DNA of 64,000 nucleotides from Cystobasidiomycetes sp. EMM_F5 (lineage: Eukaryota): contig JBPGPT010000010.1 in assembly GCA_051047955.1 (NCBI GenBank), positions 1 to 64,000 on the forward strand, in the 5' to 3' direction. Below the pieces are notes generated by a model. It worked only from the letters and a program-made list of their open reading frames with translations, did no database searches and had not been told where the DNA came from. The first letter of the stretch is position 1, and each line of letters begins with the position of its first letter. Positions 30,400 to 60,115 of this stretch are shown in pieces. Position numbers and translations under genes: made by a program.

Positions 30400-30585
30400 G
30401 CACCGAGGGTCCGCCCACGGAGCCAATCCACCTTCATTCCGCTGTGCTTTCTCGAGCCAACGAAACAATCTTATGTACAACTACCTGCCGATTTCCTGAG
30501 GCAATCAGCATGTGACGCGACAACAACAACAATGACAAACATTGCACAACTGCCAAGAGGGAGCAATCTACTTGTAAAAATAGTG

Positions 30586-33500
30586 CTAGATAATGATGAG
30601 ATCGCCTTTGCATGCAGGACACCAGATGAGCTCGTCCCCTACTGATACCCGTTTCGTGAGTCTTGCAATGGCAGTTGCATCGAGCCCATAGTGAGGATGA
30701 AGAGCTTGGTGATCGTTGCCCGATGCCGCACTAGAGTCGCCCGCTGCATTCGCTGGCGAGACGACTTCGTAGCCCATCTCATCCTCCATGCGCGTCTGTA
30801 GGAGTACATCGGAGTCAGAGGGAAAAGCCAATGGATACCGATTGGATCAACCCACCTGCAGCAATTGCAAGGATTGCCTGCGAGCGTGCTTCGTTGCTGA
30901 CGACATTTTCCGGGTCTTTTCGGCGCGCCTCTCGTCGGGTGTACCAACATCAAAAGGCGGAAACTTCTGCGCTTTTGCGGACACCGGCGACGAGTTGGAG
31001 AATGGGTTCTCGAATTGAGGAGCCCCACTGCTGAGGTTTGGAGTGGCCTCAATTAGACCAAGTTTTGGTATTGATGTACTTGCGTCGGATTGTGGGAATG
31101 GATAGTCTGCCCGCGAGCTTGCAGGAACATTTTCGAAGACCGACGGGGCATGCGAGATGGAGCGTTTGTGTGGCGAGCGTTGCGGCGAGCCTGACATGGG
31201 CGGCGGTAAATCAGTGGGTGACAAGCTTGGGAGGCGAGCGCGAGGAGTAGTAGTCGACGATGGTGCTGCGGTCGTCGGCACGCTTCGGGGCGACAGATTG
31301 TTGGGCGACAAGGGCGGTATTTGCGTATTGACCTTGAACCCAAAATCTCGCCGGGCCCGTGGCGGAGTGAAGCTGCCAGTTGCTTCAAACATCTCCGCCA
31401 TCGCCTTGGCAGCCTTGTCCCTCTCAATGAGAATTATGGTATTTAGTTTGGTTATCTTCTCCTCCATGTCAATAACGTCTCGGGACAAGGTGTGTACCTT
31501 GTCTTGCGCACCATGTGCGACGGCATCGAGCTTGCGAATCTTTTCACGGGCTCGCGACATTTCGAGCTCGTGTTGCTGCTTCAGTCCATCTACGTAGTCG
31601 GCATCGAGTTGAGGGGAGGCTGGCGGGAGGGGGTACGGTTTGCTGTGTAACGCTTCTGATAGAGTAGTGACTTGTCCACGTAAAGATTTAATTAGATTGT
31701 CCTTGCTTGTCATGCTTTGCCTCAGTGAGCTAATATCAGTCTGAGCTTTACTGATTTGGTTTCTGTAACGTTGAATCTCTTGAAGATGAGCGCCTTTCAT
31801 ACTATCCAATTGCTTATTGTCCGCAGAAGCATCGGCAGAGCTGTCCGCAGATACTGATGGCGCAGACCTTTGCGCAGCTTCCAGGGCTTGCTTATGTTGC
31901 TCCTGCAACCGCTCTAGCTCCTTCGCGTGTTCATGCAAAGCTGCGGCAAGCCGCTGCGAGACATCCATTCGCTCGCTCTCGGATGTATGAAGCGCGTCAC
32001 GATGTTGTTTGTTTAACTGGTCTCGCTCGGCCACAGACGCATTGAGAGCCGATTCGAGGCGCGCTTTCTCCTCGCCAAGATAGCCGAGACGATTTTGCAT
32101 GTCGCGATTCTGAGAGTCAGACACGCCGGAAACGCTCGAGCTAGCCGTGTCAGACCGTTCACGGTGGTCGCCGCTGTTCACATTGCGGCGAGGATTTGCT
32201 AGCAAGCGCGCCATTTGACTTCGCAGCGAGCGCTCCGTTTCTTCGGCTGCCTGTTGCGCATCAGACACACGGGTCCAAGATTCAGCGACTTGTCTCTGCA
32301 GATCTCGTTCCCGTTCAGCCGCAACGCTCCTCGCTTTGGTGTTTTCTGCCCTGACGCGATCTAGCTCTTCTCGCAATCCTTGTTCTGTCTCGTCAGCAGC
32401 TTGATAAGCAGACTCAACGTCTGCCGCAGCTTTTTGTAACTGATCGCGGAGGTCTTCTTCTACAGTCGCTGCTGTTTGGACAGACTGAGCATGAGCGGTC
32501 CGTAAAGATGCCAGTTCGGCTTGAAGACGAGAACTCGTCTGATTGGCAGTGTCTTGTGCTGCCTCGTAAGTGCGAGTGAGAGCAGCAATGTCAGCTTGGA
32601 GCTTGGCTTCGGCATCTCCTGCTGCGGAGGCAGCGACTTGTGCGGCCTCATTGGCGTCGGTAAGCTGCTGTCGAAGTTGGTTTTCTGCATGTTTGGCTGC
32701 GTTACTGGCGATATCGGCTGCTTCTTTGGCCGCTAATGAGTCGGCAGCGAATCTGGCCTCTTTTTCGGTCAAAGTTTGACTTAAGTGGGTGATTTGCGAC
32801 TCGAGGACTGTAAGCTGCGTCTGTGATTGGATCTCCCTTGCCTCGACAGCCTTACGATCGGAGTCTACTTGGTCTTGTAGATCTAGCACTTCAGCCCGAA
32901 GCCGAGACTCTGTTTCTTGCGCCAGACGATGAGACTCTGTCATTAAGGCTTCGGATTCCGCAACACGCCGCTCAAGGTTGGCTTCTTTTGCTTCTGCAGC
33001 TGACTTCAACTTGACAATTGTAAGCTCAAGGTCACGCTGAGCGGACTCGAGCTCTGCCTGTCGAGTCTTTGCGTCGCTTTGGGCTTGCGCAATAGCCGAT
33101 TCTAGCTTCGTGATGGTGGCGGTCAGCTCCCTCTCGGCTTCCGATGCAGAAAGTCGCGCTTCTTCGGTCGCACTGTTCGCTCGGGCTAATTGATTGCGGA
33201 GATCCCTTTCTACGACTATGGCAGCAGCCTGCGCACTCTTCAAAGCGCCTTGCAAGCCATCTAGTTGGACGTGCAGATCATTTTGCGTTTCGTTTGCTTT
33301 GGAAGCCGCAGTCTTCGCTTCAACTTCAGTCCGCTCCAGCCTTTGTTGCAGATCAGCGTACGCTTTGGCCGCGTCTGCTGTGTAGGACTCCAGGCGATTC
33401 ACGCTTTCGCGTAGTTCCGTCCTCAGTCGCGTCACAGTAGACGTTGCAGTCGCTTTGTCTTCGGCTGCGGACCTCCGTGCTTCTTCGAGCTCTTTCAGCG

Positions 33501-36500
33501 ACTGTTGAGCGGCAGTTGCTGCGCTTTCGCGGATGTCCTGGATCTGCGCAGTCAGACTTTCGGTCTGTTGAAGTAGGTCAGATTGTACAGATGCAGCCGT
33601 CGTCCTCAGGTCTGAAAGCTTCTGCTCCAACTCCTCCGCCTTCTCCTGCAGAATAAGAGCTTCTTCTTCAGAGGTTTGTGAAAGTTCCGCATACTCTTGC
33701 GTAGCCTTGTCCAGTAGCAATTGCATATGTGTAAGTTTCGCTTCAGCATCAGCCCGAACCGTTTCAGCTGATTTATTGGCGTCGACGATGAGCATGTTCA
33801 AGCTGTCCTCTCGCGCACTCGCAGCTTTCTGCACAGAAGCAAGTTGTTCGGTGAAAGTGGACAAATCAGCGCGGTGTTTGATGTCTCTATCCTGCAGATC
33901 TGACGAGAGGGACGATATCTGCTTCTGCAAATCTTCGATGGTGGCGGATGATGCAGCTTCCTGTGCTGCTAAGGCTGTCGCCAAGTTGGAAGACTTGCTT
34001 TGAGCTTGATGTAGCTGAGATTCAAGATCTTGACGGATATTGTCTGCACTGGTCTCGGCAGCTGAAACATCTGCAGAGGCTTTCGCGAGCCTATCCTCCA
34101 GCTCTTGTCGAGTTTTCAAGGCGGCACTTTGCGTTTCATTTGCAGCTTGAACGAGATCTTGATTGTCTGTCTTCAATTGTGCCATCCTGGCAGACGCCTC
34201 GGCATCAGCCAATTTAGCAGCTTGCGTGATCGTCTCAATATGCTGCTGGAGCTTCGTCTGCTGTGTCTCGAGATCCCGAGCGCTGCGTTCTGAGGCTGCT
34301 ATACGCGCTTGTAGCGTGTTACGTTGCTCGTCGCTACTTGCTTTCAGGTCAGATAGCTGTTTTTCCAAGTCGTCTGCGCGGCTGCGGGCAGTCTTTAGCG
34401 AGGATGCTGCCAAGCCCAATTCGTGGTCTCGCTCAATCGACACTTGCTGCAGCTCCTTTTTGTAGTTGTCCACTTCCATACGTAGAGCTTCGGTATCTCC
34501 GGCTTGCGTTTTGCAAATCTGTTGCAGTTTGTTCCGATCGTCATCGATGCTTTCCAGCTGCTTTCGCAATAACGACAATTCCTGGTCACGGGCTCTCGCA
34601 CCTTCCTTCGACGAGCCGCCTTCTCGTTCCGCACGTTCCGCCCTCTCCTTGGCGGCCGCCAACGCTGCTTCTTTCTCTTTCAATGTGGCTTCCGCTGCGT
34701 ATAATTTGCCTTCGAGGTTCATGTTTGCATTGCGGACGCGCGTCATTTCGGTCTCCTTGTCCTTTATGGTCTTTTGTAAAGCGGTCTTGGTTTCGTTAAA
34801 TCCAGCATTATCATCCGAGATCATACCGATCCTTTCTCGTAGGCTTTCCAGGTCGCGTATCAGTTCCTCGTTATCTTTTTGCAGTGATGCCCGCCGCGCC
34901 ATTGTATAGTCGGTTTGCTCCATAGCTTGAGCGGCTGCTTCTTTGGCTGCTCTTTCAGCCGTCCGAGCATTGTGCAGCTGCATCTGAATCTCCGCCAGCT
35001 CGGCTCGCGCCTGGTTGTGGACGCTACGAAGATCTGCGACTTCTCGCTCGTTCATCGCGCTCGTCGCTCGAACATTTTGATGCTCCTTCTGCAAAGCTGC
35101 TAGTTCCCCTCTGCTGCCTTCGAGCTCTTTCTGGCTATCTGCCGCGCTTTTGCGAGCAGCCTCCAGTTGCTGAAGAGACGACCGTAGCTCTTGCATTTTG
35201 GCTTCGATATCTGTTTTGGCGACCGCGTGCTGCTCTCGCAACCTCAATAACTCTGTCTCTGCAGTGTCCGCTTGAGCACTTTTGTTCTTCAATTGAGCTT
35301 CTAGATGGGGAATTACAGCCGCAGAATCCGCTCGCACTTGTAGCTCCGCGATAGCTGACTGCGCTGATGCAATTTGGACCTGCAGGCCCCTCGCGGTCTC
35401 TTGATCACGTGCTTTCTCTGTCTGTAATTCTTCCATTTGACGTTGCAGACGCTCATAATTTCCGAGGATGGTCGCACGTTCACTTTCAACCGCGGCGGAC
35501 GCCTGTTGAAGCTGTTGTATTCGAGCGGCATTTGTGGCGGCATCCTTTGTCGATCTCGCTTCTAAGTCTGCGTTCTCTCGTATCGCTTTGTCAAGTGACG
35601 CCTGTAAATTATTCAATTGAGTGGTGCTTGCTTTTAGCTTGTCGTTAAGAGCGGTTCTCTCCTGCAGAAACCCGTCTTGAGTCGGCAGCGAAGATGGTGT
35701 CCTCTGAGGCGCGCGCGTAGTCTGTATTGGCTGTGGAGGAGGAGCCGTAGATTGGCTGGTCGATGGACCAAACAGATCGGCTGGAATAACATTAACGTGG
35801 TCAGGTAAGGCAGCAGAATTCCTAGGCGGAGAAAACGAGGCGAAAGTAGGCGAAACATAGCCGGCCGGCGCATACGACGCTTTTGGAGCAGGGTCAAAGT
35901 CAAAGAGGTTGGGAGGAACAACAGAGACGTTGTTATGATGACCTGATGATCTCCTTGGAATGAATGAGCTTGTCGCAGGCTGACTAGGGGAAAAGAAGGC
36001 AGCTGCGCTGACGTCGGGGAGCGGTGACCCTCTGCGTTATTTAAATATACATTAAAGTCAGTTTCGCTGAATAATAATGGTCGACATATGTATCAACGTA
36101 CAAGCGCTGTTGAGCTGCTGATCCGTTTATTTGATGATGCCCATTGCTGCTGGATGTACGCCCATTACCATAGTGGGATAGGGCCGGACTCTCCGACCTC
36201 GTGACAGGAGCATTGAATGTTGACGAGCCTGGTGCATATGGTCTGTCATTGTGCGATGATGATGATGGCCAATCTACCGGAGCTAGCTTTGGCGACAGAG
36301 CAGCTTCGGAAGTAGGAGTCGCGCTCCCAGCGGTAGCCAAGGGAGTACTAGCACCAGCAGGAGCGACTTTTGCCTTCTTTGCCTGAAATTTCTTGAGCTT
36401 TTGGACGTTTGCGACCGAATCGCGGCGAGGTCATTGAACACGGTTCGCGTCGAAATATCAATCAGGCCCAGCTCGGCGTAGCGTATAGCTCGCAGACTGC

Positions 36501-36567
36501 GCACCTTTTCCTTAGCTCGCGCAGCTTTAGCAGCTCGCTCAGCTGCCTCAGCGTCCACGTCTGCCAT
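30586..36567 (-). CDS. long coiled-coil protein, golgin-like (GM130/Bug1-type N-terminus, GRASP-binding-like C-terminus)
   Basis: N-terminus AERAAKAARAKEK|LKKFQAKK, >1300 aa of heptad A/E/Q/L sequence, no ATPase or motor domain, last exon ends WCPACKGDLIII*. Confidence 0.75.
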
Positions 36568-36826
36568 GGCCAGGTCGACTGGTGTCAAAGCCGGCCTGCG
36601 ATCAATGTCAAGGAACACCAATTATCGAAGTGACTTTTTGACTTTCTACCTTCCACAACATTGACCACCTCTGACATCTGCGCTGTTACATTGCTCTGAT
36701 AGCGCTTGACTTTCAAAGCGTGCCCGGGCTGTTCAATTACTGTCATGCTGGCCTGATAGTCCGCTGGGCTTCTGCTGCCTGGTGCGCACTCTGGCTGCGC
36801 TGAGTTGCCGTTGAGCTTGCGTCGCA

Positions 36827-37993
36827 ATGGACCAGGACACGCCCACCAATGCCACGGGAGATGTAGCCTGGGAGCCGCCCCACGGCGCGAATGGAGCTTC
36901 CGGACCGCCAGATACTGCCCTTATCGGAACAGATGGAGCGATAGTCAAAGCACACCGGACAGTGCTTTGCGTGTGCACAGAGATCTTTGACGCACTTCTT
37001 TCAATAACTGAAGACGATCAAGCTAGCGACAAGACTCCGGAAGGACTGTCGATAGTAAAGATGCACGAAACGTCTGCCGTACTTGCAGTCGTAATCCCCT
37101 TCTGCTACAACATTGAGGGTCCCGACCTCATGCTTGTGTCTCACGACCTAATGATGCAAGCGTATGAGGCCGCCCACAAGTTTGTCTGCTTGCGAGCCTT
37201 GGAGCGAATCAATGCCGAATTTGGAATGCGGTAAGCTAACCCATGTCAGCGAGATCCAGACAAAGCTGACAGCGGCTTATGCGTACCTGCCCTTGTCTCA
37301 GTTTCTCCCAAAACGACAGGGTTGTAAGAGATCCTGGCCCCGTTCAGCCTCCTTCACCACTAGGTCTATTACAAGGGCTTGGTACAGTCGCCGGCATCGG
37401 AGTCAACGAAGCGCAAGCCCTTAGCGCAAAGGCAAAGACTATTATAAAGGCCCTGGAGGTGTATGCAATGGCAAAAAGGTTTGATGATCGTCAGCTGCTC
37501 AACCTCAGCCGTGGCCGCGCTTGGCAACAGTATGACCTCAACAAACCATTCTTCTTGCTGGAGGAGATAGGCATCGATGATATTACTACATTTGTCAGTC
37601 ACTTTCGCTCGCCAAATCGTCTAGTTTGCTGAAGATGGTCTGCATCAACAGCTCTTGTCAAAGCAAAAGGCCAGGAATAGTCTAAACGTACTGCTCACAA
37701 AAGCAGCAGGCGTAGCACCCAAAGTGGCGAAATGGAAGTGCTGCACGCCTGAATTGCACGCGTCTTTGATGGAAACCTGGACCAACGCGGTCAATAAAGC
37801 ATCGACTCGATTAAACGAGTCGGGTCGGAACTTGACTCTTGTAATCCACCGTCCGAGACGACCCGGCGCCCCACCTGCCATGCAGCCAAATGATGCTGAG
37901 AGAGTAGGCCAGCCAGAGTGCTTCCTCGCCATATTGGATACCTTTGATGCCCTCCATAGAAGCTGGACCGATGTTCTCCGTCCTCACATGTAG
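36827..37993 (+). CDS. BTB/POZ-domain protein, paralogue 1 (intact, 3 exons)
   Basis: PDTALIGTDGAIVKAHRTVLCVCTEIFDALL...IVKMHETSAVLAVVIPFCY...YEAAHKF; introns 37231-37301 and 37594-37651 give a continuous frame. Confidence 0.85.
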
Positions 37994-38674
37994 TATCCGC
38001 CTTTCTGATCGCATGCGCGAAGCGATTCCAAATGCTGTTGTTCGACTAAATCGTACATATGCAGTTACATCAGATTGTGTTGTGTCATTCTCAGCAGCAT
38101 CCCGACGGCCTTTTTTTCTGTTTGTCGCGATTGGTACCAATTGCGCACACCTACTTTGCTTTTGCGGCTGATGTCTCCACAAACGGCTCCTTCCGACTCG
38201 TAAGGCAGGAGAGGCCGCCATTCCTTCGCAGAAGACATAAGCGTGCGCACTTGCAATATGATATGTGCACGCCTGGTCACAACGCTTACGTGGCCGCAGC
38301 TTTGACCTCTCTTTCCCCGCCGCTGGTCTGCAGCTTGATATGTATTCAAGTTCAGCCCGCAATACTGATATCAGTGCTTTTCGCATGGTCGACATCGACA
38401 TCGCGGCAGTCAACCCATGTCGGAAGCCTCGCTCTAAGAGCTACATCCACGATGTCGTCGAGCGATATGGACATCCAAGCCGTCTGGAGCAACCGGAAGA
38501 GACTCTCGAGCAGACGCGCGCGCGCGACGTCAGACTGTTCGACGTGCACCGCGTCGTACAGTAAGAGCTGTAGGGCCTGCGGCACTTTGGAGCGCCTACA
38601 ACTCGCATCACCGCCCTCATCTGCGCTCCGAGCCTGTACTCGCTCGATTTCCGAGTGGGCACTCGTAAGCACTC

Positions 38675-39872
38675 ATGGACAACGGCCGCGTCTCGGACGT
38701 CAATGACGATTCCAGCAGTGATGGTATGAGTCATGAAAATGCTGAAATCACATTTGTCACGCAATGGGAACCGCCAACTCCTACAAATGGCACTTCTGGG
38801 GCTCCTGACATTGCCTTGCTTGGCACAAATAGTCGAGTGCGGAACACAATAACCTTGTTCAAAGCTCACAAAGCGGCCCTGAAGGCAAACACCGAAATCT
38901 TTGACGCGATGCTGTCTGTGGAGGAGGACCTTCATGCGGATATGACGACGCCTTGCGGCCTGCCATGTGTCGTGATGCAGGAAACGATTGCTGTCCTTGC
39001 TATCGTCATCCCTTCTTGCTACAACATCGAAGGACCTTGTCTACATTCAGTGCCTCAGGACACGCTCATGTTGGCTTACGAGGCCGCGAATAAGTATGTC
39101 AGCTTGAGGAGCAAATACAAGATTTGCATGGAAATCGCTCGAAGGTCGGCTTCTCACTGTCATTCTGCATTTGCTGAATCTGATGGACTGCATCCAGGTT
39201 AAAGTTACCTCGCAGTATCAGCGTGACGACCCAAATTGGTTCGCAGGTTTCCGAGCCGATGCTCGACACAGCTATCAACAATTTCGACATTTTCGTGACA
39301 GCTCAGCGTTGCGAAGATTCCTGGCTCATGAATTGTAGCCGTATTGCGGCATTGAAGCAACATTGAAGCAATTCAATGCCGCCACTGCATCTCGATATAC
39401 TTTATTGCTGCCCAGCGATCAAATGTCTGCAATGGCGAGAGGTCACAGCTGTAGGAGATGTGTTGTTTTGGAAAATCTGACAGCGGCATTCTGGCTCGTG
39501 CAGATAGCTAGGCGTAGGGAACTGCAGGCCGCATTGGTCAATATTCTCACAAAGGCTTATATCGAATGCGGAGCAAGCTCGTCGTGGTTATGTTGCGCAG
39601 GACCAGACCAAGACGAGCACCACGACGAGATCTGTCAAAAATGGAACGCCTTTTTGGCTAGAGCCATTCGAAACGTAGTCTCCGACAAGGTGCCCGACAT
39701 CGATCACTGTATCCACACGCATACTCTGCCGGCCTTGGGCCAGATGTACGCAGAGATGGAAGGCGACGATGAGCCGTCTGAGTGCACCATGACGTTGGTC
39801 AATCGAGACGCGGCGATGAGGAAGCGCTGGGCGGACAGTATTCTCAATCACGCAAAGAAGTTTGGGCGTTAG
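38675..39872 (+). pseudogene. BTB/POZ-domain paralogue 2, disrupted by an 11-bp tandem duplication
   Basis: PDIALLGT...FKAHKAALKANTEIFDAML...VMQETIAVLAIVIPSCY...YEAANKY; intron 39145-39197; cattgaagcaa x2 (39350-39371) creates in-frame TGA at 39364-39366. Confidence 0.75.
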
Positions 39873-40200
39873 GCTATGATTCGGTACGCCCAACGCTGTT
39901 CCCCGGATTACAGAAGTCTCTGTCTATCAATGAATGAGTATGCAGCTTCAGCTCGTGAGACCATAACTAGAATGTTGCGGCTCTCGATATGCGAAATCTA
40001 GCTTGTTTTGCTTGCATGCGTTGTTTGGTCTCCTCCGTCGGATGGTCTGTGCGAGCCGAACACGGAGCTAACATGTTGTCGGACGCTGAAATGATGCTGC
40101 ACTTGTTACCACCCTACGGATATCTCTAGCTAACTCCTCGAATACTGGCCCTAGCACGGGCAGATTGACCAGCGCGCATCCATATCGGACATTTGCAGCA

Positions 40201-41286
40201 ATGGCCACTGCATGGGAGCCGCCTCAAGATACAAACGGAGTCTCGGGACCGCCAGATATTGCACTCATTGGCACTGACGGCGGCATCGTCAAGCTCATCG
40301 TACCGTTCTGAGGCTATCTACCGAGGTCTTCGACGCGATGCTGCCAATGGATGAAGATCCAAGCGCCAGTATCACTACGTCCGACGGACTCACTGCTGTC
40401 AAAATGCAAGAGACCAGCGCTGTGCTCGCTCTAATAATCCCACTCTGCTACAATTTGCAAGGGGTTGATCTCCAGACTGTTCCCCACGATTTATTGTTCA
40501 GTGCATACCGAGCGGCAAACAAGTTTACATGTCTACGGGCAAGGGACCGCTTCTCACATGAGTTCGCCATGAGGTACGTTGGTTGACCTTTTCTGTTGCT
40601 CTTGCTGAACTTTGCCGTTCAAACATATATGCAGGGTCGTGATGAAAAAGCGCGGAACTGCGGATAGGAGAAGAGAACAAGCGGCGACGCAGAACAATTG
40701 TTTGGACATCTTCGCCGCCGCTATCCAATGTGAAGATCAGGACCTCATTCAGATCACTCGGATTCCCGCATTCAAGCAATTTGATCTGAATAACCCGTTT
40801 CGCTTAGCAGAAGCCATCGGTATGAAGACCACTCTGCATTTCGTGAGTCCTTTCGTCCATACTTTCCAAAAGAAAATGTCTGTTGATGGTATGCATGCGA
40901 TGGTACAGTTGAAAGAGAAAACAAAGCTCAAGAACGAATTAGCACATCTGCTGTGTGATGCGATGGTGATGCCGGCGAACTACGCGGAATGGACATGTTG
41001 CAGGTCTGAACTACACACGACGTTACTGCGGCGCTGGCTTTCCTATCTCAAAGATGCCATGCGTCAACACATCACGTCCGGTCTTATCCGGCAAAATCCC
41101 TGGCCTGAGATGCCCGACGACATGTCGAGGAAGGATGATTTCCTCGAAATTATGCATTATGCAACAACGACCTACGATGAAGTAGATACTGTCTCGCTGT
41201 GCTATGCCACAATAGACGACGCAATGGGAAAACTTGCCACAAACTGGACGGCGTTATTGCGACGGTATGAGAGCAATATTGAGTAA
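40201..41286 (+). pseudogene. BTB/POZ-domain paralogue 3 with a 1-bp deletion in the BTB domain (or sequencing error)
   Basis: MATAWEPPQDTNGVSGPPDIALIGTDGGIV then aa-gct-cat-cgt-acc-gtt-ctg (KAHRTVL needs one extra base at ~40292); stop at 40309-40311; introns 40574-40634 and 40843-40908 at paralogous positions. Confidence 0.75.
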
Positions 41287-41574
41287 GTGCAAATTTACTG
41301 TGCAATATACCCTCCTTGACAAGGAAGCAGCTTCTTCTACAGGCAGATCTTTCATCACTGAATGCATGCGACTTGAGAACGGAGCACATGATGACAAGTG
41401 GAACATACTTTTCAATGTGCTGCTGGGAGACTTCCAAAAACTCTGAGCCTCGCAATCCTGAAGTTGTTGACAGTCTCCTATTGCTCGCTCGAGTTGCACG
41501 GATCACACTGAAACGCTGAAAACACGAGGCAACCTGCCTAACATAGCAGATTTGCCTACTCTACAGCAATGACG

Positions 41575-42427
41575 TTATGAAACTGTTTTATCTAAAACAC
41601 CGCGAGATTCTGCCAGTGTCAGGTCTACCCCGTCCATTGTAATTCTCTTCAACGATTGAAACGATGCATCCAGCATCCATGCTAAATGCTTCGGTTGTCT
41701 GCACAGGTTTGAACCAGAGAAAGATAGCAATTTGCATTGCGGCGGACTGATTGGAGGGTCGTCATAGCCGGGTGCTCGCAGAATGAGATCTACCATCGTT
41801 CCCTGACCTTGTCCGACAGTGCAGTACAGGTCGCTCGCCTTCAATGTGACCAAATTCGGTAGGTGAGAGAGCAGCCGAGCCAGATGAGAGCATTGTCCCC
41901 CGTCGTAACGGAGCTCCGTGAGACGGACTGCAGGGTGGACTTCTCCGTATCGACGTCGTAATGCGATAGAAGGTGTGTAACGATGAGTCTCCCGGACAAC
42001 AAGCTTTTCGAGGTTTTGCAAAGACAAGCAGCGCATAAACACCTCTTCACCTGTCTGGCCGTCGAACGTCGCAATCCTAAGCTGCCGAACCATAGCAGCA
42101 GCGTGCGGGTTCAGGTTCAAAGCTTCCTGTGAGAATGTTGCTCGACAATCGGACGACTTGCACTGCATTTTGACCTCTTCTCACCATGACTGGCCAGCTG
42201 CGACGCTTGAATCCAATCCAAATCGTCTGGTATAGCATGGGTGAAGCTACGGAATTCCAAGCTGTGGACACTCGACAGCAGGAGGCCAGAAATCTGAGAG
42301 CAGCGACCGGCTGTCTGTGACTATCTTCCTTAGCGTAGTACGTGATGTCGGCATAGGCAGTCTCGATGATTGGCCGAAGCAATTCGATAGGTACTCTTTG
42401 AAAGCTTCTTCTGCGGGATTCACACAT
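41575..42427 (-). CDS. F-box-like/LRR (RNI-like) protein, paralogue 1 (3' end uncertain, possibly truncated)
   Basis: RVPIELLRPIIE...FLASCCRVSTAWNSVASPMLY; intron 42184-42127; LRR-like LQNLEKLVV, LTELRY, LPNLVTLK. Confidence 0.75.
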
Positions 42428-43059
42428 CTTCGTTTGCGCCAAGTTAGCGGTGATAATGCCTGAACGATGAGGAAAAGCAATGCTGAGTTTCGAGCAAATT
42501 GATTGTGGCCTGACTCATTCCCATCACCGTTTTGCGGTGTGAGATGGCCATCCCAGCCCTACGGTTCAACGGACCCTTGCAATCTTGATAATGTGACGTA
42601 GTCAGCAGGCAGGTAATAGTGGTAATGAGCAGAAGCTTGCTGCCATCAGTGGAACGCCGTTGCAGACAAAAGTCCGCTCCGCTAGGTAAACCGTTGTGTA
42701 CGGATACCACACAACCTGGGCGCAAAGATACTACTGAGGTTGTGAGTAGTGTCGATACTGGACATGCATATCTGAAGCTGGCATATCTATGTTGGCACTG
42801 ACGCGGAGGCGTACGGCCAGGCGTGGAGTCGAGGGCTTTCTGCTTAAGCGTCGCTTGAGTAAATCAGGCGTCAATCGCCTGCACGAGCAGATATTGCAGG
42901 GTCTTGGGTTTTGCTGATGAAAAGCCTTCCCCCGTGTAAGACATCATTACGCTACGCTAAAGTGTGTTGCGATAAGACTGCTCTTAATGCACTCTGCTTT
43001 GCGAAAAATTCGTACAGGTCTCGAAAATGCCTGCGGCCAGGAGTAAGTAATACTCTAGC

Positions 43060-44279
43060 TCACGCAACGGCAGACATAAGATCCGCATATGCTTCGTGGT
43101 GGATTGTGATCTTCTTGTGAGTCAGCGTATCGCATATCGCCAGAATCTGACTGACTGGCCAGACATCCGAGTCGGAGAGATGTCGCGGGAAGATGTGAAT
43201 CTGGGGTGTGTGCATAAGAAGCCGTCGCATTCTCAATCTCAGTCTCGCGCGTAATTGCTCACTTCGTCTAGAGCAGGTAACTCTTGTAAGCCAGCGCACA
43301 GATCTGGTGCAGGTTCAGAAGGCAGTGAGTAGGAGTAGCCGGATGACAAATCTACCAGCAACGAAATGACTTGAACATTGGCAAGTACATGCACTAGGGT
43401 GGAGAAACCGACGATAAAATGATCGAGTGTCGCACTCCGGAGAGATTCGGCCGAAGATTGCATGAGCCAGGCTAGGTGCATAGAGTCGCCGCAGATGCCG
43501 GGAGAATCGAGATGCTGTAAGCGACAAGCGGGCGGCTCAAAGTCTGGAAGTAACCCAAATTCCGGAACAAAGATTGGCAGCATTGTGTCGAAATCAGTTA
43601 CCTGAGCAAGCAGGTGCGGCATCGCTGTGCGATTATGTGCAGATTCGCAATGAGTGCGACGTATCTTTAGGTGTGTGAGATGCGGCAAGTGGCTGAGTAG
43701 CTGCGCGAGGTGCGTGCAAGGTCCGCACTCGTACGTGAGGTGCGTCAGATATGGAAGGGGCAGCGGGACTCCGTAAGTGATACGTGAAGCCACTTTGGCT
43801 TCGCAGTAAGTCTGTTGGCTGACGTGAAGGGTGCCGACACTGGATATGGATATACTGCATATCCTGAGTATATCTGAAGCGGTCATTTCATTGTAGCCGA
43901 TGATACGAATACATTTGACAAGGCCTGCTGCCACTGGATTTTCAACGATGCGCCGCTGTGAACGATAGCGCCTCAACACATCACAGTCCCATGCATCGAA
44001 AAATTGTGAAGTCGCTCTCACCAGGAGTCTCTTTCCCTGCTTGCTGTTGTTGAAGCGGAGCGTATTGTATAGCTTTGGCTGGGCAAGAGCCTGCCACGCA
44101 GATGACACGCGGCATAGACGGGCCAGGTAGACGTTACTTGCGGTGATTGCCTTTCCGCTTTCCTTTCCTCTAGCGCCTCTTGCAAAGTCCATTAGATTCG
44201 TGTCGATAACGAGCTCAATTATATTGAGAGGCAGCTTCCCAATACTGCGCAGAGATGCACAGCGATGGTTACTGGGCAT
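43060..44279 (-). CDS. F-box-like/LRR protein, paralogue 2
   Basis: KLPLNIIELVID...YLARLCRVSSAWQALAQPKLY; in-frame intron 44021-43956; LPYLTHLTY, LPHLTHLK, CRLQHLD; terminal exon IHIFPRHL...KKITIHHE. Confidence 0.8.
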
Positions 44280-44724
44280 GAGCTGGGGCAGTTGTGGGTG
44301 AGAGGAAAACAACGACGGTAACGAGAGCCAAGTCTGAAGGCTGCTCCTCACGAGCAGATACGTTGCAGTTGAACGGTATGTGTCCAACCTGCCTCCAGAG
44401 AGGACGACCTATAAAAGTGTCGATGTCTCGCGAGAGCATTAGCAGCTGTCTCCGCATCTCCGCCATAGTGTCTCTCTTTGATAAGAATCCAGCCTCCCGC
44501 TATATGGCACTACTAGTGGTCATAAATGCCATGTCAGCATGTCGAGCAGTCCTAGTAATACTGCAAATAACATCACAAGACGTGTCGATAGCGATGCCAC
44601 AGCTGTAAGCTTTACGCTCTCACATGCTTACGTTGGCGAGTTTTGGAACCGCAGAGTTTTACTCAAGATGTGCGCTACCATTTCAACGACTCTGACCACT
44701 TGAGCGCAGACACTAAGCCATATT

Positions 44725-45886
44725 TCAGGTTTCTAGGTGCACTGTGACTTTCTTGAGCGGCAGCATGTCGCGCAGAGCCAGAATTTGATTAAGCGGCCAT
44801 ATCTCCGTGCTCCCAAAGCGTTGGGGAACAATGTGAATCTAGCATATATTTGTCAGAAATACTAATCATCCCACTAGGTCATATCGGAACTTACCTCGGT
44901 TAGCTTCGCTAGCTGTTGGAAGCCAAAGCAGAGCTCTGGGGCAGGCATAGGCACGATTGAGGAAATCTCAGCGAATAGATTCACTACCAATGTGATTACT
45001 TCGATGTTGATTAGCAAGTGCATAAGATTGAGGATACCAACAACAGAGTAATCGATTGTCATCTCTCGAAGCGATTCGATTGAAGACTGCAGGAGCCAAG
45101 CCAGGTGCACTGATTTACCGCAAGTTCCGCTGACCTCTACAACCCGAAGACGGCAAGCGGGAGGATCACAGTCTGGCAGTGAACCAAAACCAGGGACGAA
45201 AACCGGAAGCATTGTTTCGAATTCGCATAGGCGTGCAAGGAGTTGCGGCATCTCTACGCGACTTTGTGCGGATTCGCAGTAAGTCCATACTACCTTCAGG
45301 TTTACCAGGTGAGGCAAGTGGCTGAGGAGCTGAGCGAGATGTGTACAAGGGCCGCGCTCATATGTGAGGTGTGTGAGTTGCGGGAGTGGCAGCGGCAGGC
45401 CGTATTCGGAGCGTGACGCTATACTCGCCTCGCAATGCGTCTGCTGTCTGACGTGAAGGTTGCTGATACCGGCTATGGACGTAATGTAGGTCTTGAGTAT
45501 GTCTGAAGCAGTCAGGTTGTCATGTGCAACAATGCGGACGCATTTCGCAAGGCCTGGAGGAACTGGCATTTTGGCAAGGCGCCGCTATGCATGACAATGT
45601 GTCAGTAGAATATGAGCAGACACACCGGAGATTCCGCAACCGCGCTCACCATTAACCGTTTCCCTGGTTTGCTACTGTTGAGGCGAAGCGTATTGTACAG
45701 TCTCGGTTTTGCTATAGCCTGCCAGACGGTAGATACACGACAAAGACGAGCAAGGTGCACATTGCCCGCAATTACTCCCCTCCCACTGTCGCCATCTCTC
45801 GCGCCGTATGCGAAGTCCGCCAGATTGATATCGACGATGATCTCGATGAGAACGATAGGTAGTCGTCCGACGGGACAGGGACTCAT
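44725..45886 (-). CDS. F-box-like/LRR protein, paralogue 3
   Basis: RLPIVLIEIIVD...HLARLCRVSTVWQAIAKPRLY; intron 45649-45585; colinear with paralogue 2; terminal exon IHIVPQRF...KKVTVHLET*. Confidence 0.8.
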
Positions 45887-46170
45887 TGCTGTGTATGCAC
45901 TCGGAGTGGTTGGATTAGAATGAATGCTTGGTATGGACGAAGCCCAGGACTACTGCTGATGCTGGTGCCAATCAGCCAAAAACGGGACATCAGTCAAACG
46001 TATGGCGGTGTATAACGTGACGTGAGTAAGCCCTTGTCTGAAGTGATTTGCAACGTACAGAGGTGCTGTTATTCGTGTCTTGCAGATGCAGCCGTCTCCG
46101 CATTTCTTGACTGTGACCATTCTGCAATTGACACCCTCCGTCTTTGCAGTTCCAACACCGCCATGTCAGC

Positions 46171-48085
46171 ATGTCAGCAGATCTTGCATCAGTCAAGGCA
46201 GAGCTCAAGCAGTGGGAGAGGCAATTTCGAGTCGAGCATGGGCGCGAGCCATCCAAGGCGGATATCAAGGCTGTCGCAGCCATAGGTGGGCAGGGCATCC
46301 GGCGATACAGCGGCAGGCCAGCTGAAGCATATTGCAGCTGAGCTGTACAAGGTGTACAGCAAGTCAAGAGCCGACAAGCCTGCAGACAAGCCTGGTCCGT
46401 CAGAGAAGAAGGCCGCAGAGCCAGCGACGTCCGTCGATAATGTAACGCCTCGAAAAGCCAGACCTGTGGAAATATTCAAGACACCTGTGAAGCCGTCACC
46501 CGCAGATACACTACAAGCTCGTCGTGATGCGACTGGCCCACCAATGTCACAGACTGATTTCGCATTTGCACCATCGCCATCCCGTTTACGCGCCCTAGCC
46601 GCGTCGCGATCGTTTTCTGGTTCCCCAAACAGCCGTTCTCCGCTGAAGCCTACGCCATTCGATGCTGCACGCCCAGACGCCTCGACATTCTCTCCTCGCA
46701 GTCTTGGAAGAACAATCGTAGTGCCACGCAAGAATGTCGCAGACACACCCCGCACAAAGGCTCTCAAATGGCTCTCGGGTGATGCTATTACTTCGCCCGT
46801 CAAGCCGAAGCGAGACCGGAAGGGGGGTGACACTGCTTCCTCCAGCCGTCTAAACGAAACGAGGAGTCTCATAGTCTCAGGCTTTGAAGAAACTGGTAGC
46901 ACTATTGGTGCTGCATCGCAAGCACGGCAGCTGTCTCCTAAACGGGCTTCACAGGAAGTGGACATGCAGACAGGACCAGAGGACGACCCTGAAGAGATAG
47001 ATTTCCTGGCTCCGTCTCCGGTCAAAGGCAAGCCTGTCATCGGGATGGACAAGGGCAAAGGAAAACAAAGATTCGTTGACCTGCTTGGAGAAGCCGACAG
47101 CTTACCGCAAGACCCGCTACCCAATACCTCACAACATTCTTCCGAAAACGGTCGAGCTAGAGCTGCCGCCAGCTTTTTTGCACCTGCTGAAGTGCCAATC
47201 AAAGCGGACGAGGGGCAAGACGGTTCCGCTAGTAATCTTGCCCAAGCGTCACAGTCTGAAGGTTATGCAAGACCTCGCAAGCGCAAGAGCACCAAATCAA
47301 CCCTGACACCCTTTGACTCTCTCGAGGACGAGCTCGCAAAGCCGGTAGAACAAGATGCTTCGACCGCTCGAAACTCGGAATCCAATAACGCTGCGAAACC
47401 GACCGCGACGTCAGCCGGAAAATTTGGTGGAGACGGTCAGAAGGCGAAAGAACCTGTCAAGAAGCGCTCACGAAAAGAATCCGCCGCCCTGGCGAAAATG
47501 CTAGAGGAAGCCGACGAAGATGAGGATGCAATCTTTGCCGAGCTGCACGGAGCCGATGGAATGCAAACGGATGAGCCGAGCGCAAAACAGGCGACAGACG
47601 ACGAGGAGTACGAGACGCAAGATCTGGACGTTGAGTACGGTACCATGCCTAAAGAGCAGCACTCGAAATCGGCAGCCGTTGCCATGCTGGAGTCTCAGGT
47701 GCAGCTTGCGGAGAGCAATATGCTGCACGAATCTTTGGACGTAGATCTCGTCTCATTGCTATCTCTGCGATCTTCGCCTGTCAAGAATCGCTTGGCCAAA
47801 TTGCACAAGAAGCGCGATGAGACAGTAAAAGCCCTATTACGCGAGCCGACGTATCTCATTGCACAGAAGCGCGAAAAGCAAAAGAAAGGCTTGGAAGATC
47901 TAGATGACGATGATGCTTGGCTGCCACAGCGTAGACCTGGCGGGGAGGAGGACTTTGAAGATATACATCCCTCAGGTGGCATGCCGGATGAGGCTGAAGT
48001 GTTTGCCGAAGCCAGTGATGATGATTGGGCTAGCGAACCTGAAGGCTGGAAAGACTTGGGAGATGGTGAAATGGATGATCTGTAG
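46171..48085 (+). CDS. SLD2: DNA replication regulator Sld2/Drc1
   Basis: MSADLASVKAELKQWERQFRVEHGREPSKADIKAVAAI|AELYKVY is the Sld2/RecQL4 N-terminal motif, followed by many S/T-P-x-K/R CDK sites (TPRK, TPVK, SPLK, SPVK) and an acidic tail. Confidence 0.88.
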
Positions 48086-55610: not shown

Positions 55611-57512
55611 TCAATTATCGGTGTCCTCCGATTTCTCCACGTCATCGTCTAGCGGTACGTTTTCGTAGACGTGTCCACGTGCCTTTATCGCACTAGTACC
55701 TTCGTCGCGTCCAGCATTCGCAGTCTGCTGCATCTCCAAGGAATCGTCCCTGCTCGTGTCTAGTGCATCACCCTGCTGTCTTCTTTTCCGCTCGATGTAG
55801 TAGTATATTGGCAGACCACAGAGCATGAAGATGACTGCGCTGAAGGATGCCTTCGGATTAGAGTATAGTGGCACAAACATCAGCCACAGTGATTGTAAGC
55901 CAGACACGACAGGCGCCACGAGCGGGGCCTTGTATGGCCTGTTGAGGTCGGGGTCGCGCCGACGGAGGAAGAAGAGGCCAATGGTGACCATAAACGTGAA
56001 GGTAGTCATAACTATGCCGCCGAACGTAACCAAGAAAGCCAAGTCACCAGCTACGACGAAAAGCGATGTGTGTATGGTGTAGAATATGACTGCCCGCACA
56101 GGTGTTTGTCGCTCCGGATGCAGGTAGGAAAAGTAAGATAAGAAGTGTCCGTCCCTTGAGACTTTGACAATCACACGAGCGTGCAGGAAGACGACGCTGT
56201 TCACGGACCCAACGGCGGACGCGATGACGATGGCGGAGAAGAGTAAAGCTCCCATAGGGCCCAGCACGTGCAAGCCAAAGTCCAGAGCGATACTGTTACT
56301 TTGAGCGACAACATCTTTGGGAAGTACGGCAAAGTATGCTAGGATATAAAATGACGCCTCACAGTAAGCGAAAACATGATGCGCAAAAAGGAACTGCACT
56401 GACAGAGGTTGACGGCCAGGTATAGCATGATAATTGATGCTGATGAGAAATGTAACGACCTCGATAGCGTCCGTATATTCTTCATTTCGCCAGTCGCAAA
56501 GGCGATACTATCTAATCCACTGTACGCCTAGCCGGAATCGAAAGCGGAAGCGCATCAGATGGTTATTATGTATTTCGTCAAGTGCCGCACCCAGATAGCC
56601 GCATATGCAGCTTCAGCGTATGGTCCGATAGATGTGTGCGAACCGGAAAATAGGTTGACAGCTATATCAGGGCTGACCTGGCCTTTGGCCAATGCTGCAA
56701 CGGCCAGAATAGAGATCAAAACAAGCGCAAGCATCTTCAATACATATCAGCAATCTTCAGTTTCTTGCGCATAGTCAGCTGACCTTGAGAGTAGTGAGGA
56801 CGACAGCAGTATGAGTCGTGGTCGAAAGTGCGTAACAATTGATGAATGCCACAATGACCAAGATCATTACGCCCAGTGTCTTGATCAATACACTATCGCG
56901 TATTGACATTTCCGTGCTATGCTCAGCAACGCTCGCTGGATTCAATAGTGATTTGGCCATCTTCAGCATGTATTCCCCCACAACCAGACAGAGAGCAGCT
57001 GGCCCAGTAGAGAGGACGAGGCTGGCCCAGGACCACATAAATGCCATGAGTTGACCATAAATATGCTTAATGTAAGCCTGATGACCGCCATTGTACGGTA
57101 AGGCTGATCCCTATTAATCATATGTCACCGATCCATAAAGTACGAAACGCGGCCTGCTCACTAGCTCCGCAATGCATGCCGCTTGAGCCCAGCTTGCCAG
57201 ACCAACTAGCAACCAGACCACTAAGCACATGCCGATACTGCCAGTATCTTTGATAATCATGCCCTTTTGGCGTTTGACAGGTTCAGCAAGGGAAATTCAT
57301 CATCTCCAAGATTGCCAGACCCTCACAGAAGAGGCGAATATGCCAGCTCCAATGACATGACCGATGTTGATACTGGTAGCACTTAGCAATGTCAGGTGTT
57401 TGGGCGTGCCATCTTCGGGTCGATCAGCGTCCGGTCGGTGTGACAATAGACTGGCTTGCGATTCGTCGCTATCCGCATTTTCGAGACGCTCATTGAGTGT
57501 CCCGACAGTCAT
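55611..57512 (-). CDS. APC-superfamily LAT-type amino acid permease, divergent copy B
   Basis: IGAGIFASS|G, AEL|GSALPYNGG, W|AYSGLD...GEMKN, LDFG, SRDG, TPVRA, RPYKAP. Confidence 0.9.
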
Positions 57513-57783
57513 CGACAGCTGGCGTGTGCGTAAAGAGGGAGTCTAGTTAGACTGCAAAAATTAGTCCAACGAGCTCTTGGCCGAAGATGATCGGGTTGCC
57601 CAAATAACTGGCCAGGGTCTAACGGTCGAAAGTGTCAGAGGGACAGACATGATGTACCCAATTCAGACAGGCAGCGATGCTCTCGTAGATGTCATCGTTG
57701 ATTGCTTGTCGCATGCATATCGTGATCAGTTTCGTAAAGACATCACATACTGTACTACATTTGACTGATACTGTACTGAGGTA

Positions 57784-60115
57784 TTATCGAGCTGGTGAAG
57801 GTCCGCCTGCGCTTGGATGGCGAGAGTCACCGTCGTCTAGTTCCACTGCTTCGTAGGCGGACCCCACGTCTGTTCGTTTTGAGAACAGCCGAGCAATGCG
57901 GTGTACCAAAGCTTCAATGCCGTCTATGATCCTCTCGGTCCTGGTAGGCGGGAGAGCCATCTCGCCAACAAGTGGTTGTCTGGGCATCCGATGTTGTGTG
58001 TAGAGGTAGAATGGATATCCAGCTGCAATGAAGCCTGGTAAAGCCGCGGTTCCGATTTGATTAGGCAAGCATCGGTGTAGCGAAGTAATGTACTTACTAA
58101 GAGCGGCTACTGCTTGGAGAGGTGCAGAAAAAATGGGCATGAAGAGCAAGAAGATTGCAACACAGCAGAATATGATTGGTGTTCCAAGCCAGGTCTTGTA
58201 AGGTCTAACAAGCGCATTGTCAGCCAGAATCCCGCGTGAATATCAGCATATCTTTCACCTCGGCAAGTTCGGTTCTCGATGCCTTAGGATAAGTAGGCCG
58301 GCTACCGTCAAGAAGTAGAATAACCAGCTGCCAATACCAAAGAAGGAAACGAGAGATGCAAAGTCGCCGACTGCTATCATGCTGAAAGTGAGAAGAGTTT
58401 GCAATATCTGCGTAAAGTTCATCAGAGCGCGTGTGACAGTCGCCATACACCAAGCTCACGATGCTGTTGACCGGCGTCTTCCTAGTCGGATGCAGCTTTG
58501 CAAACCATTTTGGAAGGTATCCATCTTTAGCAGCACCGTGTATTATTCGTGAAGACGTGAAGAAAGAGCTGACGAACGGTAAATACGTTAGCGAGGTACA
58601 TCTCCGAAACGTCTCGTGCGCACCTGTTCAAGGCGCCGAAACACGAAATGACTACGATGACTGCGAACAAAATTCCACCTGCTGCACCAAAAATGGCTTT
58701 GCCAAAATCAAGGCCGACGGTATTAGAATGTGATACGAGCGCCTTGGGAAGGACTATGTAGTAGGCTGCGTACAGGCTGTCAATCAAGTTTGGCGATGTG
58801 GGGCGGCAGACGCCGACTTACAGATATTCGCCAACAAGAAGAGTATCATAACGAGCGGGAGTGAGATATGAATAGTAAGAGGGAGATCTCGCGTCACATT
58901 CTTCATCTCCCCTGCGACATAGCAAGCTTGGTCCCAGCCGTCGTAAGCCTGCTTTCATGGTCAGATCGCATTACACAAGGCCAAAGCTGCTATTGTAATT
59001 GCCTTACCCATAGTCCGCTGTAAAGAGCTAGAGCGTACCTCCCAGGCGACCTCGATGATCCCGCGAATATATTACCAGATAGCGTTTCGCTACGCAGACC
59101 TCTGGCGAGCTGTACTATACCCATGATGGCAACTGCCAACAGCGCCAGCAGCTGTACGCACAAGGTTCAGCATTGTATCAGCGTGCGCGGCGAGAAAGAC
59201 GTCGGACCTTCGTGAAAGTCAAGACGACCTGCGAGCGTGTTCCTATTTTCAGGCTGATGGCATTAAGAGCGGAAATGCAGAAGATAGCTAGCATTGCGAC
59301 TAGCTTGACGACGATTCGTGGAATTGCTTTTGCGCTTTCGTCGCTGCCAGCACTGACGGCCGTATGGTAGGCTATCCGACATACGTATTCGCCAAAGATG
59401 ATTGCTATGATTGCCGCTGAGCCCGGCTTGAGGGCTACAATGGCCGTCCAAGAGAACAAGTACGATAGAGTCGGCCCGTAAGCATATCGCAGGTAAGCCT
59501 GTGCGCCTCCATTCAGAGGTATGGCAGCTCCGAGTTCGGCAAACGACGACGCTCCGGTCCATGCGAGCAGCCCTGCACCAATCCAGACGAGTAGCGCGGC
59601 TCCAACACTACCACAATCAGCAGTTAGGACACCCTGAAGCCAATCAGGAACGGCCAAAATTAGCAGGGTTTCAACTTGTTGTGGACAAGCGTCCGTACAG
59701 GCGAACTGAATATCCCGCTTCCGACTTGCAATCCAATCACCAGGGCTATTCCACCGACGAGATTTAGATGCTGTACTTCGCGACCTTCGTTCAAGCGGTC
59801 GGTTCCTTCGCGCGAGACAGCTATAGGCAACCTTTCGAAGCCAAACGATATTGATGAGAAAGAGCGGCCTCGCATAGGCCGGCTGGGGGGTGCATCGTTG
59901 TCGTATTCGTCGTCTACCGCCTCGGATATGCGACCACTTTGCAGGAATTTTGCAGCTTCGCCCAGCTCGTGCAGCTCGAGGTCACCATCCGGATCACTAT
60001 CCAAAGATCCGTTTCTCGACTTCTCGCCGTCCGCACCGCTGCCACTTTCCAGGGCTCTGCCTCTGCCCTTGTCCGCATTGACGCCTGCTCCGACATCTGT
60101 ATCCTCGCTGGTCAT
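57784..60115 (-). CDS. APC-superfamily LAT-type amino acid permease (Mup1/Mup3-like), copy A
   Basis: IGLQVGSGIFSSP|GV, FAELGAAIPLNGGAQAYLRYAYG, LYSGLW|AYDGWDQACYVAGEMKN, SCFGALN, REPNLPR|PYKTW. Confidence 0.93.

Follow-up and report, generated by a model that had tools for sequence, protein, structure and literature searches.

The locus described here raises the question of why two tandem arrays of putative ubiquitin-ligase adaptor genes, drawn from unrelated families, should lie tail to tail in a basidiomycete genome. It occupies positions 36827-45886 (9.06 kb) of a 64,000-nucleotide stretch from Cystobasidiomycetes sp. EMM_F5 (assembly GCA_051047955.1, contig JBPGPT010000010.1, positions 1 to 64,000), and this whole stretch is referred to as the window. 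Six genes are present. Three with similarity to BTB proteins (BTB1-3) are encoded on the forward strand, and three with similarity to F-box/leucine-rich repeat (LRR) proteins (FBX1-3) are encoded on the reverse strand, with 288 bp separating the stop codons of BTB3 and FBX1. The original prediction, made from the sequence alone, had described this convergent arrangement correctly and had gone on to propose a locus for proteolytic surveillance. The explanation that is considered probable here is that the genes represent two unrelated, lineage-specific families of the cullin-RING adaptor class, each shaped by old local tandem duplication and by birth and death, and that their adjacency does not reflect a functional unit. 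The genes of the two arrays were delineated by reading the junctions in three frames, after which the coordinates were fixed by script.

36827-37993, forward strand: BTB1, intact, three exons, 345 amino acids; the spliced reading is open from ATG to TAG
36827-37230, 37302-37593 and 37652-37993 (stop codon included), forward strand: exons of BTB1, from the spliced translation
37231-37301 (71 nt, GTAAGC..CTCAG) and 37594-37651 (58 nt, GTCAGT..AACAG), forward strand: introns of BTB1, from frame reading
38726-39872, forward strand: BTB2, a BTB paralogue with a broken frame
39145-39197 (53 nt, weak GTCGGC donor) and 39435-39503 (69 nt, GC donor, in frame and stop-free), forward strand: introns of BTB2, homologous to those of BTB1
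40201-41286, forward strand: BTB3, a BTB paralogue with a broken frame
40574-40634 (61 nt) and 40843-40908 (66 nt, GTGAGT..TACAG, in frame), forward strand: introns of BTB3, from frame reading
41575-42427, reverse strand: FBX1, F-box-like/LRR, 264 amino acids, two exons; intron 42127-42184 (58 nt)
43060-44279, reverse strand: FBX2, F-box-like/LRR, 363 amino acids, three exons; introns 43956-44021 (66 nt, in frame) and 43201-43262 (62 nt)
44725-45886, reverse strand: FBX3, F-box-like/LRR, 346 amino acids, three exons; introns 45585-45649 (65 nt) and 44839-44894 (56 nt)

That each array is a set of paralogues is evident from tblastn searches of every exon against the window. The BTB first exons matched one another with E-values of 1e-28 to 5e-36, FBX2 and FBX3 matched at 2e-89, and FBX1 matched the other two at 1e-24 to 2e-26. 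No further BTB or FBX copy was detected in the window by tblastn, apart from a marginal match at 30408-30539 on the forward strand (E 0.008) in which residues 27-70 of BTB1 exon 1 are matched with 30% identity. This match is flanked by a DUF7082 gene and by the 3' end of a 1729-residue open reading frame (ORF); it is probably a chance similarity, but it could be a relic.

Intron positions are common to the members of each array, as had been predicted. In the BTB genes, the first intron falls inside the arginine codon of EFGMR, EIARR and EFAMR, respectively, in phase 2, and the second precedes the last exon. In the FBX genes, the first intron is in phase 0 and follows KRLM, KRLL or WPVM. All eleven introns are between 53 and 71 nt in length. 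The gene models themselves required revision. The original prediction had missed the second intron of FBX2 and FBX3 and the homologous short third exon that follows it (IHIFPRH... in one and IHIVPQRF... in the other), which places the 3' ends of these genes at 43060 and 44725. FBX1 does not have the last ~100 residues of FBX2 and FBX3, including the last LRRs and the third exon, and since it ends only 288 bp from the BTB3 stop codon, there is no space for the missing part.

Of the eleven introns, three keep the frame and contain no stop codon: FBX2 intron 1 (43956-44021), BTB3 intron 2 (40843-40908) and BTB2 intron 2 (39435-39503). The spliced FBX2 reading agrees letter for letter with P0002, a deposited hypothetical protein (EMMF5_002674) of Cystobasidiomycetes sp. 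EMM_F5. In contrast, P0001, a 346-residue call of FBX2 based on the ORF only, retains 22 intron-encoded residues that are absent from P0002. A comparison of the two demonstrates that ORF-based gene callers read through an in-frame, stop-free intron. Two long ORFs at 38050-38703 (forward strand, 218 codons) and 37814-38440 (reverse strand, 209 codons) overlap the 732-bp spacer between BTB1 and BTB2 and the 3' end of BTB1; no Pfam family matches either ORF, and neither is likely to be a gene.

The BTB assignment begins with the first exon of BTB1, which matches the Pfam BTB family (PF00651) with 24.8 bits, above the cut-off of 20.5. The BTB domains of BTB2 and BTB3 are 51% and 62% identical to that of BTB1. 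When a profile of the BTB exons was searched against the PDB, all 11 sequences found at E ≤ 1 were BTB/POZ proteins. The best match was ZBTB17 (7.4e-4), with SPOP and KLHL11 near an E-value of 1, so that the support is weak but consistent. No Pfam family was identified in the C-terminal half of approximately 200 residues, and the best Atlas score for this half (0.83) gave no usable lead. The last BTB exons (37652-37990, 39504-39869 and 40909-41283, forward strand) share a W-x-CC motif in the form of KWKCC, SWLCC and EWTCC, respectively. The motif is kept in all three copies amid a C-terminal half that is otherwise poorly conserved. Like the BTB/POZ adaptors of Cul3, the proteins combine a conserved BTB domain with a variable second domain; unlike them, they have no MATH, Kelch, BACK or zinc finger domain in the C-terminal half according to Pfam, and they carry W-x-CC. 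On the basis of sequence similarity, BTB1-3 may bind Cul3. The BTB domain would then be the likely docking and dimerizing part and the C-terminal ~200 residues the likely substrate-binding part.

Identification of the FBX family is less direct. The F-box-like family (PF12937) matches the first exons of FBX1, FBX2 and FBX3 with 15.9, 15.5 and 14.6 bits, respectively, against a cut-off of 24.3; all three matches fall at the same profile positions (20/21 to 44/46 of 47). An HMMER search of 1.84 billion representative sequences with a profile of the FBX family returned 27 matches at E ≤ 1e-3, four of which are the window's own ORFs. Among the remaining 23, the F-box-like domain is above the Pfam cut-off in three (P0012, 35.9 bits; P0010, 31.5 bits; P0019, 25.0 bits) and below it in four (P0017, 24.1 bits; P0013, P0023 and P0025, 16-17 bits). 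P0012 was found at E 4.5e-7, with query residues 4-69 aligned to residues 3-63 of the protein, a stretch that coincides with its F-box-like domain (residues 4-58). P0010 and P0019 were found at E 2.1e-8 and 8.6e-5. The nearest Atlas clusters are also basidiomycete F-box proteins (0.98). In the FBX alignment, LP..I...I is followed by an insert of approximately 20-25 residues and then by LA.CC.VS..W...A...LY. Against the PDB, the FBX profile identified LRRD1 (E 1.1e-7), COI1 (0.0014) and LGR4 (0.0026), together with TIR1, KDM2B and MAX2.

Structure prediction is consistent with these assignments. An AlphaFold2 model of FBX2 was calculated from an alignment of 22 rows with a predicted local distance difference test (pLDDT) score of 78.7 and a predicted template modeling (pTM) score of 0.78; a run with five rows (pLDDT = 50.3) was too poor to use. 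In the model, helices at residues 18-35, 41-55 and 60-71 are followed by a region, residues 73-350, in which strands and helices alternate. A Foldseek search with the model returned 22 matches at E ≤ 1e-3, the best of which was FBXL2-SKP1 (3.7e-5). The others include Skp2, FBXL3, TIR1, COI1, D3, Dia2 and LRRs of the NLRP3 type, and, judged by the titles of the entries, the set consists of F-box/LRR or NLR-type LRR proteins, the tubulin chaperone E complex and two cytoplasmic-lattice chains. In VIA alignments, residues 13-363 of FBX2, N-terminal helices included, superimpose with FBXL17, FBXL2 and Skp2 (Z = 11.7-12.1, root-mean-square deviation 5.8-7.4, 259-270 aligned residues).

Taken through the distant relatives, an F-box/LRR architecture is well supported for the FBX proteins by transitive homology, with a fold that agrees with it in the model. 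The sequence comparisons support homology of the FBX N-terminus to bona fide F-box-like domains, followed by LRRs. The proteins resemble receptors of the FBXL type in Skp1-Cullin-F-box (SCF) ligases, such as Skp2, FBXL2, FBXL17, TIR1/COI1 and the fungal PF12937 proteins, in several ways: a predicted three-helix N-terminal segment lies directly before an LRR solenoid, the pattern LP..I...I ... L...C.VS..W...A...LY..L is present, the best Foldseek and whole-length VIA matches of FBX2 are FBXL proteins, and distant homologs carry PF12937 above the cut-off. They differ in their low Pfam scores, in the insert between helix 1 and helix 2, in their small size (264-363 amino acids), and in having no relative better than E 2.6e-13 outside the source organism. 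If the sequence and the model are a guide, the FBX proteins may bind Skp1. The three intact genes would most likely encode SCF substrate receptors, which would dock on Skp1 through the three-helix F-box and bind the substrate through the LRR solenoid.

The lineage specificity put forward in the original prediction is supported for both families by the sequence searches. A word-indexed protein search with FBX2 gave three matches among 2791 candidates, all from the source organism, and the same type of search with exons 2-3 of BTB3 returned only its own ORF among 445 candidates. In the FBX profile search of 1.84 billion representatives, no relative was better than E 2.6e-13. Scans of metagenomes produced 230 pattern matches for the BTB domain and 169 for FBX exon 2, none of which proved to be a relative by tblastn.

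Within the window, the paralogues are strongly diverged, again as predicted. Protein identity is 34-44% within the BTB array and 33-57% within the FBX array, and the closest pairs are BTB1/BTB3 and FBX2/FBX3 (57%). Nei-Gojobori counts were made on codon alignments of the spliced paralogues, with the frame breaks of BTB2 and BTB3 bridged for the comparison only. In all six pairs, the proportion of synonymous differences (pS) is 0.61-0.88, which is saturated, and the proportion of nonsynonymous differences (pN) is 0.24-0.59; pN is below pS in each of these pairs and in each domain. For FBX2 versus FBX3, dN is 0.30 and dS is 1.6, giving a dN/dS of about 0.19. From the saturated synonymous sites and from pN < pS, the duplications are old and the copies have evolved under constraint. 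The original prediction had also suggested comparing adaptor domains with C-terminal domains, and here the two families part. The C-terminal half of the BTB proteins diverges much faster than their BTB domain (20-32% versus 51-62% identity; pN/pS of 0.60-0.80 versus 0.28-0.41), while the F-box and LRR parts of the FBX proteins diverge alike with no consistent difference in pN/pS. The ratio is below 1 everywhere, in a comparison that comprises paralogue pairs with saturated pS. The fast divergence of the BTB C-terminal half fits a variable substrate-binding part and is equally expected of any adaptor family.

Of the BTB genes, only BTB1 is intact. The break in the BTB2 frame near 39350 is due not to an intron but to an exact 11-bp tandem duplication in exon 2, with CATTGAAGCAA present twice at 39350-39371 on the forward strand. 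The duplication shifts the frame into a stop codon at 39364-39366, and 166 codons downstream are open in the shifted frame. When one copy of CATTGAAGCAA is removed, AALKQFN aligns with AFKQFD of BTB3 and the reading aligns with both BTB1 and BTB3. A rescue by splicing was attempted by hand from GT donors at 39335 and 39341 to an acceptor at 39415, and was rejected as the resulting frame contains a stop codon. BTB3 is one base short in an A-run of exon 1 at 40292/40293, where it reads GTCAAGC compared to GTCAAAGC in BTB1 and TTCAAAGC in BTB2. In the DNA alignment, the loss is a single-column gap at 40291-40293 (AA versus AAA in BTB1 and BTB2). The BTB3 frame stops at 40308-40310, and 94 and 216 codons downstream are open in the shifted frame. 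Splicing was also considered for BTB3 and dismissed; no intron of workable length fits 40278-40310.

The island lies among ordinary eukaryotic genes with short introns, and the GC content of the window is approximately 52% throughout. Its two neighbors are as follows.

30850-36036, reverse strand: left flank, an ORF of 1729 amino acids without a Pfam family, with the appearance, by eye only, of a coiled coil
46132-48085, forward strand: right flank, a Drc1/Sld2 gene with a first exon at 46132-46341 (40.5 bits in Pfam) followed by an ORF of 599 amino acids

Drc1/Sld2 is a DNA-replication gene, and it starts approximately 250-300 bp from the start codon of FBX3 on the opposite strand. A Pfam scan of the window, which covered 51 long ORFs and further pieces, also identified genes for an ABC transporter, a serine carboxypeptidase, a prenylcysteine lyase, Raptor, a DUF7082 protein, a photolyase, an NSF-type AAA ATPase, STIMATE and amino-acid permeases. 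The permease similarity (AA_permease_2) is found in pieces at 55614-56507, 58223-58627 and 59181-59981, within 55614-59981 on the reverse strand. The profile positions of the pieces suggest two neighboring genes, which may be another local duplication. Scans of 36000-46500 against Rfam and for repeats revealed no RNA family, and the only repeats were those due to similarity between the paralogues. Taken together with Pfam, these scans identified neither transposons nor viral remnants nor RNA genes within or beside the island. GC content at third codon positions is 0.52-0.58 in the island genes and 0.49-0.57 in the flanking genes, from which the composition of the island appears to be native.

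Since long shifted frames remain open downstream, the frame breaks of BTB2 and BTB3 are either recent or errors of assembly. Real mutations are favored as the likely explanation. It is unlikely that all six genes are intact and that both BTB breaks are assembly or consensus errors, even with the downstream frames fully open in both genes and with the BTB3 break being a one-base length change within a short A-run. Seven long ORFs of the same window amount to 7040 uninterrupted codons, which argues against a high rate of indel errors, and the spliced FBX2 reading is exactly that of an independently deposited protein. Exact tandem duplication of 11 bp is typical of mutation by replication slippage and untypical of base-calling errors. 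The weak GTCGGC donor and the GC donor at the BTB2 introns also fit relaxed constraint. With the breaks taken as real, BTB2 and BTB3 would each bear a single recent frame-breaking indel beside an intact BTB1, in a birth-and-death pattern that is usual for such families. The original prediction had assembled the island differently, as a dedicated locus of proteolytic surveillance (antiviral, anti-effector or non-self) in which both adaptor classes are kept together while diversifying against foreign proteins. Such a role would be modeled on nematodes and plants, whose clustered F-box and MATH-BTB families were reportedly proposed by Thomas in 2006 to target foreign proteins. Both families here are lineage-restricted and diverged, the BTB C-terminal half outpaces the BTB domain, and the broken BTB2 and BTB3 would fit rapid turnover. 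However, saturation of synonymous sites in all six pairs makes the arrays old and not actively expanding, pN stays below pS throughout, the two parts of the FBX proteins diverge alike, there are only 3+3 copies in 64 kb, and the island and its borders are devoid of the transposons, viral remnants and RNA genes that were searched for. None of the analyses made here favored surveillance. The old age and overall constraint count mildly against an actively diversifying locus and, with two of the three BTBs broken and no sign of co-duplication, surveillance is now very unlikely.

A functional coupling of the two arrays, either through recognition of the neighboring BTBs by the F-box/LRR proteins or as a co-regulated module of six genes, is more doubtful still. 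FBXL17 is an F-box/LRR protein that takes BTB domains as substrates, and a comparable control of dimerization quality can be imagined for arrays that are adjacent and convergent with so short a distance between the BTB3 and FBX1 stop codons. The FBX2 model (residues 13-363) indeed aligns with FBXL17 from BTB-bound structures (6wcq_B, Z = 12.1; 6w66_B, Z = 11.8; 8uah_B, Z = 10.4). These matches tie with FBXL2, Skp2 and generic LRR proteins, so the resemblance to the FBXL17 quality-control ligase is one of fold class only (Z = 10.4-12.1). Two of the three supposed BTB partners are frame-broken, and the closest pairs of the two arrays are not mirrored (BTB1/BTB3 versus FBX2/FBX3). Co-duplication of BTB-FBX pairs is unsupported for the same reason, a comparison that carries little weight in three-member families without an outgroup. 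A complex prediction for the FBX2 LRR region (72-363) with BTB1 exon 1 gave a score of 0.00 and a mark of 0.34, which is no support and is not evidence either way. The specific proposal that the FBX proteins are dedicated SCF receptors for the neighboring BTBs, in a lineage-specific and FBXL17-like control of Cul3-adaptor dimers, is the least probable of all. If true, the locus would genetically couple two major cullin-RING systems and the broken BTBs would be lost partners.

The explanation as two independent families of the adaptor class has its own difficulties. An HMM check of both domains had been called for in the original prediction, and it turned out positive for the BTB domain of BTB1 and negative for F-box-like in all three FBX genes: none of the FBX proteins reaches the cut-off and by the Pfam rule they are non-members. 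A Pfam scan of the whole of P0002 likewise found no family at E ≤ 0.01. BTB2 (14.9 bits) and the pieces of BTB3, which had no match alone, are both under the Pfam BTB cut-off. Generic LRR proteins tie with the F-box proteins in VIA (Z = 10-12.3; TBCE 12.3, CD14 and TLRs 10-11), so that the fold match does not single out F-box proteins. A word-indexed search of the protein collection with BTB1 exon 1 found no matching protein of at least 238 residues among 579 candidates, which leaves the BTB gene models without independent annotation. The seven ORFs used as a yardstick for indel errors were chosen because they are unbroken, so the breaks could be assembly errors. Finally, a tail-to-tail placement of two adaptor arrays is so unusual that chance should not be taken for granted. 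A BTB array adjoining an F-box array was not found described for fungi, in a literature search that was not aimed at that question.

Two independent families nevertheless remain the probable answer. Each array would have expanded through old local tandem duplication, independent of the other, and their position side by side would most simply reflect chance or a spot prone to duplication. PMC10282164 describes a remarkable expansion of F-box and BTB/POZ genes in mushroom-forming fungi and F-box proteins as a fast-evolving family. The island has much in common with such expansions: tandem paralogues that share intron positions, strong divergence that is greatest outside the cullin-docking domain, a mixture of intact and broken copies, and an orthology that is hard to trace. 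In contrast, its arrays are very small (3+3) and its duplications are old, their synonymous sites being saturated and pN remaining below pS.

The locus would gain interest only if co-clustering of both adaptor classes turned out to recur or to have a function. It also illustrates a practical trap in gene prediction, namely that in-frame introns are read through by ORF callers and that true frame breaks may be mistaken for introns. The ordinary reading, if true, would add two lineage-specific subfamilies to the known local multiplication and decay of fungal F-box and BTB genes. The first would be a small F-box-like/LRR family whose F-box contains an insert, and the second a BTB family whose C-terminal domain bears W-x-CC and belongs to no known family. 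While unsurprising, both would help in annotating a class of basidiomycete yeasts that is poorly sampled.

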